A stretch of 56,445 nucleotides of DNA, taken from an uncultured Pseudomonadales bacterium (GTDB lineage: Bacteria > Patescibacteriota > Microgenomatia > UBA1400 > PJMF01). Below the pieces are notes generated by a model that saw nothing but the letters and a program-made list of their open reading frames with translations, did no database searches and was not told the DNA's origin. This document shows, in pieces, positions 17,662 to 44,393 of this stretch. The DNA lies in assembly GCA_964433225.1 (NCBI GenBank), contig CAYSQA010000003.1:1-56445 (forward strand), read 5' to 3'. The stretch's first letter is position 1. Each line of letters starts with the position of its first letter. A program made the position numbers and the translations under genes.

Positions 17662-18543
17662 TTAAAAATCAATTTCTTTGATAAATTTTCTCAATTCTTG
17701 TCTAAGCTCAGGGTTATTTTTGGCCATGGTCAAGTTAGCTTTTAGCCAGCCCAAAGGATAACCACAATCTAGATAGGTTCCTTTGGGAGTATAAATAGCG
17801 ACTGCTTCTTCTTGGGCTAGCATGGTAACGGTATCGGTAATATATAATTCACCGGATTTTTTATCTATTTCTTGTTTTTCGATTAATTCGAATACTCTTG
17901 GAGTTAGAATATATTTACTAATATTGGCTAAATTAGTCGGAGCTGTTCCAGGAGTAGGTTTTTCAATTAAGTTTTTTAAATATTGATAACCATTTTTCTC
18001 AAAAGTTTCAGCAATCCCATAGCGGTAGAGTTCAGTCTCTGGTTGCTCAACAAAGGTTGCTAGGGCTTTAGCTTTAGTTTTTTCTAAATGGTTAATCATC
18101 AGTGAGACTTCAGAGATACCATCGGCATTATAAGGGATATCATCGCCCATTAAGACCACAAACGAGTCTTCATCTTTGAAGTGATCTTGAGCTATTTTTA
18201 TTGGTGTTGCAGACCCATATGGGTCACTATCTGCTTGCTTAACGAAGTGAAAAGTTGCTTTTTCATGAAGTGTTTTGACTTCATCATAAAGATGAAGTTT
18301 ATTCATTTTTTCTAAATAAGCTTTCAAACGATTATTTTCTCTGAAGTAGTGCAAAATTTGTTTATTATGTTCATTAATTACAAATACAATTTCGGTAATT
18401 CCTGCTTTGACTAAATCATCAACCAAGTAATCGACAACTGGTTTATTTAGGACGGGAATCATCTCTTTTTGAATTGTTTTGGTAAAAGGTAAAAATCTTG
18501 TGCCAAAACCAGCAGCAGCAATAAGGGCTTTTTTTATTTTCAT
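17662..18543 (-). CDS. galU: UTP--glucose-1-phosphate uridylyltransferase
   Basis: KALIAAAGFGTRFLPFTKTIQKEMIPV signature and VLMGDD. Confidence 0.9.
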   Translation of the reverse strand: MKIKKALIAAAGFGTRFLPFTKTIQKEMIPVLNKPVVDYLVDDLVKAGITEIVFVINEHNKQILHYFRENNRLKAYLEKMNKLHLYDEVKTLHEKATFHFVKQADSDPYGSATPIKIAQDHFKDEDSFVVLMGDDIPYNADGISEVSLMINHLEKTKAKALATFVEQPETELYRYGIAETFEKNGYQYLKNLIEKPTPGTAPTNLANISKYILTPRVFELIEKQEIDKKSGELYITDTVTMLAQEEAVAIYTPKGTYLDCGYPLGWLKANLTMAKNNPELRQELRKFIKEIDF

Positions 18544-38866: not shown

Positions 38867-40186
38867 TTAGTCGCTTAAGCCTTTGACATCTTGATGTTTT
38901 TTACCAATGACAAAATCGGTAAGAGTTTTTTCTACTATTACTGGTTTGATGAACTGTTCAACCATCTTCTTGGAATTAATGACATTAAGTTCTTTGAAGA
39001 AAAACTCAAATTTTTTTTCTAGAGTAGCTCTAATTTTTTGTTTGTTTTCTTCAGGAATATCCCAAGTTTGTTGTTTAAATGGTCCCCAGGCTTTTTTGCG
39101 TAATTGGTAGTGAAATTGTTCAGCTGTCTGATCATTTTTTCGTTCGTCACTTAAGTTTTCATCGGCATATTGGTACATAGCCAGTAATAAATCTTGAGGG
39201 AAAGCCGGGTGATCCATAATCATATTTTGAAAACCAGTGGCCAAATGAACCTCTAAAGCTTTATTCAAAGTGAATTGGTTAAAATATTTATCTGGTAGAG
39301 TAGAAGCTCCATGTTGAACTGAACCGCCAATTTGGTATTTTTCCTGACCAACTTCAGTAATGTTTTTTAAAATTGAAAAGTCCACATCTAAATCTGCCAA
39401 TGAACCATCAGCTAAGACCACTCCACCATGGCTAGTGCCAGTTTGCACACTAATTTTACTGATACCAACCATATCTTTAGTTAAACCCTGATTAAAACCA
39501 TTCATATAGGCTTCAAAATCAGCTACGGTGCTGTTCTTTCCTCCAATATGACCAATTTCTCCTCCAAGGGAAATAGTGATGCCCTGTGGTTCTAGTGATC
39601 TGATGTATTCAGCTAATTCTAGTGAAAATTGATAATTGGGGATTTGTTCCTCTGCTTCGGTTGGTTTGGCTAAATCAACCAGGGTCGACATATCAATATC
39701 AATATTGTAAAAACCAGCAGCGATCGCTTCATTAATCAGGTCTTTAATTTTTTCAATTTCTCCAGTTTTGGGTTTACCTGGTTCAGCAGCTTTAGCTTGG
39801 AAGTGATCACCCTGAATAAATAATGGTCCAGACCAACCCTCCCTCAGTGCAGCAGCAGTAATGACTGTGACATATTCTTGAGGTGATTGATCAGTGTAGC
39901 CAATTTCAGATCTGGCAATTTCAAAAATCATTGCTCCAACTTGGTTTTTAAGTGCAGCTGAAAAAGTAGCCCTAGCTGTATCATAAGTCATCCCACGCAA
40001 GTTCATGGCTGGGACAGTAAAGTTATTAGGTAGTTCTTTATGACCTCTGGCTAAATAAAGATCATTAATCGAGCTAGGAATGACTCCAGCTTTAATGCCT
40101 GCTTTCCAGATTTCAAATCTGGCAGTTTGTTGCTCTTTATCTTTCCCAAAAACTGCTTGGTAAACTAGTTGGTCAATGTTTTGCAT
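38867..40186 (-). CDS. fba: Class II fructose/ketose-bisphosphate aldolase family protein (long form, 439 aa)
   Basis: IQGDHF, ISVQTGTSHGG and GGSVQHGAST metal and phosphate motifs. Confidence 0.75.
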   Translation of the reverse strand: MQNIDQLVYQAVFGKDKEQQTARFEIWKAGIKAGVIPSSINDLYLARGHKELPNNFTVPAMNLRGMTYDTARATFSAALKNQVGAMIFEIARSEIGYTDQSPQEYVTVITAAALREGWSGPLFIQGDHFQAKAAEPGKPKTGEIEKIKDLINEAIAAGFYNIDIDMSTLVDLAKPTEAEEQIPNYQFSLELAEYIRSLEPQGITISLGGEIGHIGGKNSTVADFEAYMNGFNQGLTKDMVGISKISVQTGTSHGGVVLADGSLADLDVDFSILKNITEVGQEKYQIGGSVQHGASTLPDKYFNQFTLNKALEVHLATGFQNMIMDHPAFPQDLLLAMYQYADENLSDERKNDQTAEQFHYQLRKKAWGPFKQQTWDIPEENKQKIRATLEKKFEFFFKELNVINSKKMVEQFIKPVIVEKTLTDFVIGKKHQDVKGLSD

Positions 40187-40201
40187 AAAGCTCCTTTTAT
40201 T

Positions 40202-41164
40202 TTAAATACGATATTCAATTGTTTCTTTGTCAAAGACATGAGTGGTATCAATGAAGCGAATTTTATTACTTTGATTGGTCATGACTAAGCTATGAGTTCT
40301 AGCTCCATCACCAAAGAACCTTACTCCTTTCAGGATATCACCATTAGTTACTCCTGTAGCACAAAAAACAATGTTTTTGCCGCTAGCCAGGTCTTCGTGA
40401 GTATAAATTCTGTTAAGTTGGCCGCCCATCTTTTTTAATCTAGTTTCTTCCTCTTTATTTTTGGGCCAGAAACGAGCTTGCATTTCACCTTTAATACAAC
40501 GTAGAGCAGCAGCAGTCATTACCCCTTCTGGAGCTGCTCCAATCCCCATGACCGCATGAATGCCGGTGCCTCTCATACAAGCAGCAATACCTGGGAACAA
40601 ATCTCCATCAGGAATTAGTTTGACTCTAGCTCCTGCTTCTCTAATATCAGCAATTAGTTCTTCATGTCGATCTCGATCTAAAACAGTAATGGTGAGATCG
40701 TCAATATCTCGGTCCAAAACTCTGGCAAGGGTTTTTAAGGTTTTTTTGACTGGATCATCAAGGCTCACTTTACCAACAGCTTCTGGTGGAACCACTAGCT
40801 TTTCCATGTACATATCTGGAGCGTGGAATAAGCCACCTTTTTCACTAGCAGCCAAAACAGAGATAGCTCTTGGTCCTAAGTTAGCAGTAGCATTGGTGTT
40901 TTCTAGAGGATCAACGGCGATATCCACCTCTTTGCCGTTTCCAGATCCAAGTTTTTCACCAATGAAAAGCATTGGGGCTTCGTCACGCTCCCCTTCACCG
41001 ATTACCACTCGGCCAGAAAACTCAACTTCATTTAAAAAACTACGGATAGCTTTGACTGCCGCATCATCGGCTCCATTTTTGTCACCATAACCAGCAGCTC
41101 TAGCTGCGGCAATAGCTCCTACTTCGGTGGCATGAGAAAGAGACAAAGCGAGGGTTTGTTCCAT
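40202..41164 (-). CDS. glpX: Class II fructose-1,6-bisphosphatase (GlpX)
   Basis: GEGERDEAPMLFIGEKLG, VDPLENT and MGIGAAPEGV. Confidence 0.92.
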   Translation of the reverse strand: MEQTLALSLSHATEVGAIAAARAAGYGDKNGADDAAVKAIRSFLNEVEFSGRVVIGEGERDEAPMLFIGEKLGSGNGKEVDIAVDPLENTNATANLGPRAISVLAASEKGGLFHAPDMYMEKLVVPPEAVGKVSLDDPVKKTLKTLARVLDRDIDDLTITVLDRDRHEELIADIREAGARVKLIPDGDLFPGIAACMRGTGIHAVMGIGAAPEGVMTAAALRCIKGEMQARFWPKNKEEETRLKKMGGQLNRIYTHEDLASGKNIVFCATGVTNGDILKGVRFFGDGARTHSLVMTNQSNKIRFIDTTHVFDKETIEYRI

Positions 41165-41177
41165 AAGGAAAGTTCCT

Positions 41178-42005
41178 TTAGTTAGTTTGTATTTCTGACC
41201 ATTTTTCTTTAGCTAATTTGAGATTGTCCTTATCGGTAATATCAAACCACAAACCCTGAAAGATTGAGGCAGTGAGTTGATTGTGTTGAGCTAGTTTGGG
41301 GAAAACATCTTTCTCCAGAGTAAAGACTTCTTTAACTGGGAAAAACTCAAAAATCTTGGGATCAAAAACATAAAAACCAGTATTAATAATACTAATCCCA
41401 GTATTGTCACTGGTGGTTAAAAATTTAGTGATTTTATTGCCTTGGATAAAAACTTGACCATATTTTGGTTCACCGAGCCTTGGTTTAACGGCAATTGTTG
41501 CCAATGATTTTTCAGCAAAATGAAAGGCAAATAAACTGGAGAGATCAATATTAGACAAAGTATCACCATGAACAACCAAGAATGGTGAGTTTTTAATTAA
41601 CTCCTTGGCCTTCTTAACTGCACCGCCAGTTCCTAGTGGATATTCTTCGACTAGATATTCAATCTTAACTCCATAATTTTCTCCTTTACCAAAGATTCTC
41701 ATGATCTCAGTATCGGTTTTATGAATGCAAATAATGATATTGCTGATCTGGTTATTTTTAAGATTATTAATAATATGAGTTAGTAAATAGCCCTTACCGA
41801 TTTTGGTTAGAGTCGGGTGGTTATCATGATGATTGTTACCTCCAGCTAGAACAATTGCTGTTTGCACCGTAGGAGAGAGTGATTTTTTGACCAAAGTTTC
41901 AATAGCATGTGACCTGTTTCTAATATTAATACCATTAATAGTGGCATCAATTGCTTCAAGAATGTTTTCCGACAGAGTGATGGTCAGTCTGGTTTTAGTT
42001 CTCAT
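41178..42005 (-). CDS. Ribbon-helix-helix domain fused to a sugar-phosphate nucleotidyltransferase-like domain with a degenerate catalytic loop
   Basis: N-terminal RLTITLSENILEAIDATING...RSHAIETLVKKSL (CopG/NikR-like). This is followed by AIVLAGGNNHHDNHPTL in place of GxGTRLxPLT, then EEYPLGTGGAV and FLVVHGDTLSNIDL. Confidence 0.7.
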   Translation of the reverse strand: MRTKTRLTITLSENILEAIDATINGINIRNRSHAIETLVKKSLSPTVQTAIVLAGGNNHHDNHPTLTKIGKGYLLTHIINNLKNNQISNIIICIHKTDTEIMRIFGKGENYGVKIEYLVEEYPLGTGGAVKKAKELIKNSPFLVVHGDTLSNIDLSSLFAFHFAEKSLATIAVKPRLGEPKYGQVFIQGNKITKFLTTSDNTGISIINTGFYVFDPKIFEFFPVKEVFTLEKDVFPKLAQHNQLTASIFQGLWFDITDKDNLKLAKEKWSEIQTN

Positions 42006-42008
42006 AAG

Positions 42009-43268
42009 TTAGTTAGTCAGCGGTTCCAGTCCGGGCAAAGTTTTTTTACCCAAAAATTCTAATGAAGCCCCACCAGCTGCAGATAAGTAGTCATAGCGAT
42101 CTTCTAAACCAAGGTGATGGATAGCATTAATAGTGTCACCACCACCCAGAATTGTTTCAGCACTGCTTTTAGCAATGGCGGTGGCTATGGCTTTGGTGCC
42201 TTCTTCAAAGTCTGGTTGCTCGAATACGCCCATCGGTCCGTTCCAGAAGATGGTTTGAGCCTCGAGAATAATATCTCGGAATAAGCGTTGGGTTTTGGGG
42301 CCGATATCTAAATACATCCAACTCTTTTTTCTTTCATCTTCGAAGTTAGTGAGATCAATTACTTTTTTACTTTTAGGATTGTCAATGTCATCAGCCGCAA
42401 TAACATCAGCTGGATAAATAATTTTTGGTAAGGGAATGTAGCCATGAAGCATCATCTTTTGAGTTTTGGTGCTTTCCATTAGTTCTTCGGCTACAGCAAC
42501 AAAAGAGATATTTTCTTTTTTAGTATCGGCTGGTTTATCTTCTAGATAAGAGTGAAAAACTTCAATCCCCTCAGCCTTGATAAAGTTATTAGCCACCCCT
42601 CCTCCAACCAAAACCACATCTGCAATTTGACTGAGATTTTTTATGGCTTCGACCTTATCTGAGATTTTGGCCCCACCAACAATAGCGACAAAAGGTCGTT
42701 TTGGTTTTTTACTCAAACTGGATAACATCTCAACTTCTTCGTAAAGAGCAAAGCCTGCATAGGCGGGTAGATATTTAGTTACTCCCACCACTGAAGCGTG
42801 AGCTCTGTGAGAAGCAGAGAAAGCATCATTAACAAACACATCTGCCAAAGAGGCTAGTTCTTTAGCAAAACCTGGATCATTCTTTTTTTCTCCAGGGTTG
42901 AATCTGCTATTTTCTAACATTAAAATGTCCCCTGGTTGCATTTCAGCTACGGCTTGTTCAGCCTCTTTACCAACAGAGACAGCGATTTTATTAACTTTTT
43001 TACCAATTAATTTTTCTAGATGTTGAGCAATTGGATCCATTTTAAGAGCTTCAACAACTTTTCCTCCGGGTCTACCAAAATGAGAAGTAAGAATAATTTT
43101 GGCTTTTTGTTCAATCAAAAACTTTAAAGTAGGTAGAGTAATTTTAATCCGAGTGTCGTCCATCACCACTTGTTTATCACGGTTGGTTTTGGTGGGAGTA
43201 TTATAATCAACTTTGAGGAGAACTTTTTTATTTTTAACTGCGGCGGCATTAACTTTTCTAAGATTCAT
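42009..43268 (-). CDS. pgk: Phosphoglycerate kinase
   Basis: VDYNTP, SHFGRPGG, NSRFNPGEKKND and GGGDT. Confidence 0.94.
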   Translation of the reverse strand: MNLRKVNAAAVKNKKVLLKVDYNTPTKTNRDKQVVMDDTRIKITLPTLKFLIEQKAKIILTSHFGRPGGKVVEALKMDPIAQHLEKLIGKKVNKIAVSVGKEAEQAVAEMQPGDILMLENSRFNPGEKKNDPGFAKELASLADVFVNDAFSASHRAHASVVGVTKYLPAYAGFALYEEVEMLSSLSKKPKRPFVAIVGGAKISDKVEAIKNLSQIADVVLVGGGVANNFIKAEGIEVFHSYLEDKPADTKKENISFVAVAEELMESTKTQKMMLHGYIPLPKIIYPADVIAADDIDNPKSKKVIDLTNFEDERKKSWMYLDIGPKTQRLFRDIILEAQTIFWNGPMGVFEQPDFEEGTKAIATAIAKSSAETILGGGDTINAIHHLGLEDRYDYLSAAGGASLEFLGKKTLPGLEPLTN

Positions 43269-43337
43269 ATAAAAATTACTCCTCGATTTTAGATCATACC
43301 TTTGTCATACATTTATACCGCTATAGGAAGTAACTTG

Positions 43338-43853
43338 TCAATCTTTAGGCTTCGAAGTGTTTTTTTTGGTTTTTGGTGGTGTATAAAGTTTTTTGAATTC
43401 AAAAATGAAAAACCAGCCAATAAAAGTTACAACTAAAGTTAAAAAGATGGAGTCATGGTTAAAAATAACCAAGTAAAGCCGACTGATAGTAGAAAGAATA
43501 GTAGCTAGTAACCAGTTTTGCCAACCTAATAGTTGAGTTTTTTTATGAGCTAGCTGAGTAAAAGCAGTAAAATAGAGAAAACCAATGATGAGCATGGTTA
43601 TTCCATTCCAAAAGAGAAAAGCAGGCTTGAATTCTATAAATTCGGCAAAAACTTTGGGTAAAGCATCAAGCTGAAAACTAGTTGAGAGTGATTTTAGGCC
43701 ACCAATAATTTCAATTAACCCTCGCAAAAACAAATACCAAGGAATAATTGGTAACAAGGTTTTTAAAAAATTGGTTGGGAAGTGAGGAAAAGGAGCAAAG
43801 AATTTTTCTAAATTTGTTATAAATTTTTGAAAAAATTCCGCCATATTTTTCAT
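43338..43853 (-). CDS. Hypothetical membrane protein (171 aa)
   Basis: Four hydrophobic segments and a basic C-terminal tail. Confidence 0.55.
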   Translation of the reverse strand: MKNMAEFFQKFITNLEKFFAPFPHFPTNFLKTLLPIIPWYLFLRGLIEIIGGLKSLSTSFQLDALPKVFAEFIEFKPAFLFWNGITMLIIGFLYFTAFTQLAHKKTQLLGWQNWLLATILSTISRLYLVIFNHDSIFLTLVVTFIGWFFIFEFKKLYTPPKTKKNTSKPKD

Positions 43854-43940: not shown

Positions 43941-44393
43941 ATGTCTAATTACCGTGTAAAAACGCTTCAGCCTCATTCAGGAGCTATTATTATGGCTCTG
44001 TATCATTATCTGAAATATCCAGATAAACTCAATTTTGATATTAGAATGACTAGTCCTTTCAATAAGGTTTATCGAGTAATTTTGGAGGGTAAAACTCGAG
44101 ATGAGTTGGTGTTTAGAACGGGTAAAGACTGGCCCTGTTATTCCAGAATTTATGTTCATAGTAATCAAACTGAGTTTAGAATTTCTCACGATCACTCTGT
44201 TGTAAAAGAAGAATTTAGAATAGAAGGTAGAAAACTTTATTTGGGAGATTTGCGAACAGAAGCTGGTTTGGGGATTAGTTTTGAAGGAGAGTTTTTACAT
44301 CCCAAAATGTTAGAGCTTAACGAAGAGTATCGTTTACTAGAAGGTGGCTTGATCTCTGCTCGTAGATATTATGAAGTAGACAATGCTTGGTAA
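43941..44393 (+). CDS. Hypothetical protein (150 aa)
   Basis: Intact ORF preceded by AAGGGAAA. No motif recognised. Confidence 0.55.
   Translation: MSNYRVKTLQPHSGAIIMALYHYLKYPDKLNFDIRMTSPFNKVYRVILEGKTRDELVFRTGKDWPCYSRIYVHSNQTEFRISHDHSVVKEEFRIEGRKLYLGDLRTEAGLGISFEGEFLHPKMLELNEEYRLLEGGLISARRYYEVDNAW

Follow-up and report, generated by a model that had tools for sequence, protein, structure and literature searches.

A predicted autorepressor joining a NikR-type DNA-binding head to a decayed sugar nucleotidyltransferase in a patescibacterial pgk-glpX-fba operon

In PutA a ribbon-helix-helix (RHH) domain is joined to enzyme domains for proline catabolism, and the protein autoregulates its own pathway's operon. 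It is an active enzyme whose DNA binding is controlled by its redox or membrane state; BirA is another such trigger enzyme. CggR of Bacillus, a member of the SorC/DeoR family, is an autoregulating repressor encoded in a lower-glycolysis operon that includes pgk: its effector is fructose-1,6-bisphosphate (FBP), its sensor comes from a sugar-phosphate enzyme fold, and it binds tandem direct repeats. To our knowledge, gene regulation has barely been characterised in the Patescibacteria, or Candidate Phyla Radiation (CPR), which cannot be grown alone. Two further systems are relevant here: the E. coli NikR operator is GTATGA-N16-TCATAC (PMC7055735), and GMPPA, an inactive paralogue of GMPPB, binds GDP-mannose and serves as a feedback sensor on GMPPB (PMC11228364). 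We describe a 275-residue protein, hereafter the regulator, encoded on contig CAYSQA010000003.1 of an uncultured bacterium; the window analysed is a stretch of 56,445 nt, and the genome is a 782-kb assembly, 94% complete. We consider it likely that the protein is a one-component, ligand-sensing autorepressor, coupling gluconeogenesis and nucleotide-sugar supply to a sugar-nucleotide-like signal. Its gene and parts are the following.

41178-42005, minus strand: open reading frame (ORF) of the regulator, 275 residues (read directly).
41865-42005, minus strand: NikR/CopG-type RHH domain, residues 1-47 (profiles and AlphaFold2 (AF2) model).
41181-41864, minus strand: GMPP-like NTP_transferase fold without catalytic residues, putative sensor, residues 48-275 (Pfam, PDB profile, Foldseek).
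41814-41837, minus strand: degenerate signature loop, residues 57-64, NNHHDNHP (alignment columns).
41409-41417, minus strand: T197-T198-S199 at the position of E-K-P, the motif of a phosphate-binding Lys (alignment columns).

Residues 1-47 are an RHH domain, predicted to bind DNA. Such a domain had been claimed in the original prediction, made from the letters of the window, and all peptide stretches quoted there are found in the ORF. A profile built from 46 N-terminal residues of 32 family members matches the structures of E. coli NikR (E=1.2e-8), P. horikoshii NikR (4.6e-5) and CopG (6.3e-4), and NCBIfam NikR models reach 3.4e-4 with the single 275-residue sequence. The AF2 model, with a mean predicted local distance difference test (pLDDT) score of 93.4 and a predicted template modelling (pTM) score of 0.88 for the whole protein, agrees with the strand-helix-helix order: residues 1-12 are extended and followed by two helices (13-22 and 31-43), the block having pLDDT 84-97. 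The strand RLTITL, with R6, T8 and T10, and the NRSHAIE motif are near-invariant across 73 loci from several phyla. The genome encodes no second RHH domain of the NikR/CopG type, and no NikR_C domain was detected genome-wide; the C-terminus of the regulator is an NTP_transferase instead.

The likeness of this C-terminal body to sugar nucleotidyltransferases, first seen by eye, is substantiated by the Pfam NTP_transferase match (E=3.4e-25). This match covers profile positions 21-236 only and, as it begins at position 21, leaves the N-terminal signature loop unaligned. The best NCBIfam models, mannose-1-P guanylyltransferase and HddC, score far under their cut-offs. A profile of 116 family members matches human GMPPB, Leishmania GMPP and Arabidopsis VTC1 at 1e-48 to 5e-51; Foldseek, run with the AF2 model, aligns it with GMPPB, GMPP and VTC1 at E=7e-20 and TM-scores of 0.71-0.73, normalised to the query.

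In RmlA- and GMPP-type enzymes, the Arg of GxGTRL and the Lys residues of PK and EKP bind phosphates. All three phosphate-binding, catalytic residues are absent from the regulator. LAGG is followed by NNHHDNHP where the canonical xGTRLxPLTxxxPK is expected, in a stretch about 6 residues shorter. The degeneration of this loop had been proposed from the sequence and persists in a proper hidden Markov model (HMM) alignment, which also reveals what had escaped the first reading: the Lys of EKP is gone too. EKP is lost in the entire clade of the regulator, and deeper relatives retain it. We conclude that the body has probably lost sugar-1-phosphate nucleotidyltransferase catalysis and is a predicted pseudoenzyme. 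Motifs on the base and sugar side are retained and near-invariant in the family: LGTGGA, HGD, IINTG, LEKDVFP and WFD in the regulator, with the family forms LGTxGA, GD, INxG, LExDVFP and WxD. Three clade-specific basic residues, K174, R176 and K181, are conserved; they might replace the lost phosphate ligands, or the ligand might differ.

The gene lies in a block of four tightly packed genes on the minus strand (38867-43268), in the order pgk, regulator, glpX and fba, with gaps of 3, 13 and 15 nt. It is indeed wedged between pgk and glpX, as first described, starting 3 nt after the pgk stop and ending 13 nt before the glpX ATG. Given such short gaps, and with terminator-like and promoter-like hits inside the block showing no excess over shuffled sequence, co-transcription of the four genes is likely. 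The other three are listed here.

42009-43268, minus strand: pgk, phosphoglycerate kinase, first gene of the operon (Pfam PGK, E=4.3e-131).
40202-41164, minus strand: glpX, class II fructose-1,6-bisphosphatase (Pfam FBPase_glpX, E=4.1e-131).
38867-40186, minus strand: fba, a long (439 residues), divergent class II fructose-bisphosphate aldolase, last gene of the operon (Pfam F_bP_aldolase, E=1.3e-12).

The aldolase scores 48 bits with F_bP_aldolase, for a cut-off of 25.5, and 2.7e-4 with NCBIfam.

Upstream of pgk, a promoter and a predicted operator are interleaved.

43336-43341, minus strand: -35 hexamer TTGACA, overlapping the TGA stop of an upstream membrane-protein ORF (read directly).
43312-43317, minus strand: -10 hexamer TATAAA, 18 nt after the -35 (read directly; TATAAA or TATATT in orthologues).
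43294-43310, minus strand: predicted operator, two GTATGA boxes in direct repeat with an 11-bp period (repeat search and conservation).
43279-43284, minus strand: pgk Shine-Dalgarno sequence GAGGAG, 10 nt before the ATG (read directly).

The operator sequence GTATGACAAAGGTATGA (minus strand, 43294-43310) has no other match in the window, and 0 of 100 shuffles match. Its boxes, at 43305-43310 and 43294-43299, are separated by the spacer CAAAG. The first begins one base after the -10 hexamer, and the whole element spans from just past the -10 across the likely transcription start. The direct repeat noticed originally is thus real, with coordinates that were one base too high: TCATAC, on the plus strand, sits at 43294-43299 and 43305-43310. 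Its placement between the TATAAA -10 and the pgk Shine-Dalgarno is confirmed by the sequence. A further TTATAC variant box, reported at 43315, does not stand: it occupies 43313-43318, overlaps the -10 TATAAA and is more simply the -10 element. Our consensus promoter scanner omitted the pgk promoter, position 6 of its -10 hexamer not being T. TTGACA is kept at the same place in the orthologous loci L003, L004, L005, L007 and L044.

We followed the boxes through 80 related loci from Patescibacteria, Chloroflexota, Acidobacteriota, Planctomycetota and Zixibacteria. TATGA-N5/6-TATGA gives 63 hits there, against 6.2 in shuffles. At least 43 of the 80 loci carry the direct repeat, in gene orientation, no more than 250 nt upstream of the regulator gene or of the operon head; this count combines 38 loci scored by script with L002, L003, L005, L006 and L027, in which the site lies upstream of pgk. 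Between orthologous loci at 42-85% protein identity the intergenic sequence is unrelated, yet TTGACA, the -10 and the two boxes are kept. The consensus is G-TATGA-N-AAA-G-TATGA-C/T, in which bases left free in the search are conserved nonetheless: the G before the boxes (46/52 and 51/52 sites) and the AAA spacer (41-42/52). The period is 10 bp (N4) in most relatives and 11 bp (N5) in the clade of this locus. An exact TTGAC[AT] lies at most 60 nt upstream of 28 sites; in 27 of these the first box begins 10-34 nt after the -35 and so falls on the core promoter, a repressor-like geometry. As a phylogenetic footprint, the operator first suggested from one locus is well borne out as a predicted site, by these loci and by its co-occurrence with the gene (below).

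Other arrangements of the boxes are found as well. Distant members have them inverted, as GTATGA-N5-7-TCATAC. Arrays of 3-4 GTATGA boxes, direct and inverted mixed, occur at L029:5942-5990, L039:5942-5990, L054:5934-5965 and L009:4815-4857, and suggest higher-order binding by analogy with omega-type RHH repressors. In one Patescibacteria metagenome-assembled genome (MAG), a run of GGATTA hexamer repeats (L025:3115-3170) separates the operator boxes from the start of the regulator gene.

The 782-kb genome holds two perfect GTATGA direct-repeat sites, the pgk promoter and a site on contig 8 (6604-6619), about 100 nt upstream of a gene for a WecG/TagA-family glycosyltransferase. Relaxing the search of this genome to one mismatch per box, or to an inverted arrangement, returned scattered, unconvincing hits only. 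The TagA-like site is kept before the orthologue in 4/4 genomes of the same genus, even at 56% protein identity, and the strict pgk site in three of the four. In relatives the boxes precede glpX (L033 and L041) and PGM/PMM, the phosphoglucomutase/phosphomannomutase gene (8 loci and 3 further genomes); elsewhere they precede a ManC-type GDP-mannose pyrophosphorylase, uridine kinase and a cytidylate-kinase-like gene. Across independent gene orders the regulator neighbours pgk, glpX or class I fructose-bisphosphatase (FBPase), fba and iPGM, and also an epimerase with glycosyltransferases, and mevalonate/UppS genes. Altogether, the predicted regulon appears to follow a supply route that starts at triose phosphates and leads through hexose phosphates, sugar-1-phosphates and nucleoside-diphosphate (NDP)-sugars to envelope glycans.

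We now propose a mechanism for the ligand-sensing autorepressor. The N-terminal NikR-type RHH would dimerise, each dimer recognising one GTATGA box with R6, T8 and T10 of its strand. These residues align with Arg3, Thr5 and Thr7 of NikR, reportedly its DNA contacts in the NikR-DNA structure 2HZV. Two dimers would sit one helical turn apart on the repeat at 43294-43310, held together by their NTP_transferase bodies. The repeat extends over the -10/+1 region of the pgk promoter, so that bound dimers would exclude RNA polymerase and repress all four genes, pgk and the regulator's own as well as glpX and fba; from the second perfect site the regulator would control the TagA/WecG-type glycosyltransferase gene. 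The C-terminal domain, presumably a descendant of a GDP-mannose-pyrophosphorylase-like enzyme, is most likely an oligomerisation and ligand-sensing module. A metabolite fitting the remnant nucleotide-sugar cleft would alter the affinity for DNA: speculatively, a nucleotide-sugar or sugar-phosphate-like compound reporting that hexose and NDP-sugar supply is sufficient. By analogy with GMPPA, we favour an NDP-sugar end-product acting as co-repressor. The set of motifs retained and lost hints at such a GMPPA-like sensor.

The sensing step is where the proposal meets its most serious competitor. NTP_transferases are natural dimers and tetramers and negative autoregulation alone is common among RHH proteins; with the phosphate-binding residues gone, the body could simply oligomerise two RHH dimers, sense nothing and let the regulator buffer the expression of its operon. 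We find this unlikely: the base- and sugar-pocket motifs are near-invariant across phyla, though needless for oligomerisation, and a metabolically coherent regulon of gluconeogenesis, PGM/PMM, ManC and glycosyltransferases fits a metabolite-responsive switch.

A second question is whether the body still works. Over 116 cluster representatives that sample the RHH-fused family, a column-based count finds the three catalytic motifs complete in 11 and GxGxR/K present in 15; 47 have lost all three, and many are partly decayed. Since complete GxGT(R/K)L, PK and EKP motifs survive in deeper relatives, enzyme-plus-RHH forms probably exist. The regulator might itself be such a bifunctional trigger enzyme, a still-active sugar-1-phosphate nucleotidyltransferase that also binds DNA and relies on unconventional catalytic residues, and the conservation of the new K174, R176 and K181 would suit it. 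We hold this to be improbable. In a FastTree tree, whose deep branches are poorly resolved and whose outgroup is not monophyletic, and which we use solely for its well-supported 'dead' clade, the regulator falls among 40 representatives (support 98), essentially all decayed; the three canonical residues are missing here and throughout that clade. The signature loop is the clade's least conserved stretch, with a column identity of 0.32 against 0.91 for LAGG and 0.58 for the remainder, and has no conserved Arg or Lys, unlike a catalytic loop. Finally, three further NTP_transferases matching the full-length profile are encoded elsewhere in the genome and could take over catalysis. One of these three apparently canonical proteins, encoded in the window, is a GalU-like UTP-glucose-1-phosphate uridylyltransferase (17662-18543, minus strand; TIGR01099 at 1e-65, below the curated cut-off) whose N-terminal profile match is intact.

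Among 31 related genomes, the boxes occur in 10/10 that carry an RHH of the regulator's type; of the 21 that do not, two have hits, all three of which are intra-ORF with non-consensus spacers, so that intergenic boxes are confined to the ten carriers; these genomes are related and non-independent, and the pattern amounts to a few independent events, not 31. To this caveat must be added four others that weigh against a ligand-sensing autorepressor acting at these boxes. Pfam RHH_1 gives E=0.032 on the single sequence, under threshold. About 35 of the 80 loci are without the strict direct repeat and have mostly inverted boxes, a single box or no recognisable box. GTATGA resembles a -10 element (TATGAT) and may be the -10 in some loci; its conservation could partly be that of the promoter. 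Lastly, with all three phosphate-binding residues lost, canonical NDP-sugar binding by the regulator is uncertain, and the ligand could be another one or absent.

A further reading takes the repeat for part of the promoter or leader, or for the target of some other factor, and gives the RHH a different target or role. It would suit the TATGAT likeness and the boxes at -10 positions in some loci, but we judge it very improbable: sigma-70 promoters do not feature two boxes with a fixed 10-11-bp period and a conserved AAA spacer, intergenic sites follow the carriers of the regulator among the 31 relatives, the hexamer is the half-site of NikR, the closest characterised RHH protein, and a genome search found neither NikR nor another RHH of the regulator's type. 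We also reject an RHH antitoxin paired with a nucleotidyltransferase toxin, the body having the sugar NTP_transferase fold, not that of Pol-beta/MNT, in a metabolic context.

In the literature searched in full text we found no description of an RHH-NTP_transferase fusion. What appears new is the enzyme-derived sensor domain; an RHH one-component repressor would be of a known kind. The family is present in at least 542 species-level genomes, and public annotation names its members 'sugar phosphate nucleotidyltransferase'; pathway reconstructions may on that account include a nucleotidyltransferase that is not one. Intact, partly decayed and fully decayed relatives share the RHH head and lay out a graded path from enzyme to sensor. 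More tentatively, and short of thinking it probable, we can imagine the family as the main transcriptional switch that lets ultra-small bacteria adjust gluconeogenic flux and the synthesis of nucleotide-sugars to demand. Its sensor would be the decayed last enzyme of the pathway, still binding the NDP-sugar product, joined to a NikR-type head with an ancestral GTATGA code and inserted, in this lineage, in a pgk-glpX-fba operon. For the CPR such a system is a rare handle on regulation, with a regulator, a predicted operator and a coherent regulon, spanning pgk, glpX, fba, iPGM, PGM/PMM, ManC and cell-envelope glycosyltransferases, all readable from sequence.

An identical copy of the locus exists in a Patescibacteria MAG, and the closest relatives are Pacebacteria/Paceibacterota. 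In these relatives, two other ORFs are syntenic with the operon (clusters 19 and 9): a divergent one of 150 residues (43941-44393, plus strand) and that of a multi-pass membrane protein of 171 residues and unknown family (43338-43853, minus strand), whose 3' end lies inside the -35 of the pgk promoter. In 15 related loci the aldolase gene found 3' of the regulator encodes the same unusually long form (438-475 residues). A different Patescibacteria clade has the regulator after a protein of 340-350 residues (cluster 5; L037:4933-5979 and 11 other loci) that matches neither Pfam nor NCBIfam models; to judge by its NEVN and ITETGW motifs and its hydrophobic, signal-anchor-like N-terminus, it resembles a secreted clan-A glycoside hydrolase. 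Neither the GAPDH C-terminal domain (PF02800) nor PGI (PF00342) finds a match in the 94%-complete genome, though pgk, fba and glpX are present. This leaves the step between 1,3-bisphosphoglycerate and glyceraldehyde-3-phosphate, and that between fructose-6-phosphate (F6P) and glucose-6-phosphate (G6P), unaccounted for; the enzymes may be divergent or encoded in unassembled DNA.

Of the known systems, NikR (E. coli 1Q5V/2HZV, P. horikoshii 2BJ1) has the DNA-binding domain closest in sequence, with a like strand pattern, R-x-T-I-T-L in the regulator and R-V-T-I-T-L in NikR. The original prediction had likened the architecture to that of NikR; the analogy holds and extends further, to the DNA, as the box hexamer GTATGA is the E. 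coli NikR half-site. The logic would be common to both: an N-terminal RHH, a C-terminal sensing and oligomerising domain and repression at a promoter, predicted on the regulator's side. The C-terminal domain is the ACT-like, nickel-binding NikR_C in one and an NTP_transferase fold in the other. The boxes of the regulator form a direct repeat (N5, or N4 in most relatives), whereas those of NikR are inverted and 16 bp apart, which requires another quaternary geometry. The regulons differ too, carbon and NDP-sugar metabolism here and nickel uptake for NikR.

GMPPA (7D72-7D74) shares the fold family and ranks with the best hits by both structure and sequence. It regulates an enzyme by protein-protein contact, lacks a DNA-binding domain and retains its C-terminal beta-helix; the regulator, in contrast, carries a fused RHH and would work at the level of transcription. 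PutA offers the parallel of an RHH joined to an enzyme body, which in the regulator is without catalytic residues; deeper relatives with intact catalytic motifs may work in a PutA-like manner. CggR is the functional analogue, from a different lineage and with an unrelated fold: a winged helix-turn-helix (HTH) with a SorC sugar-binding domain.

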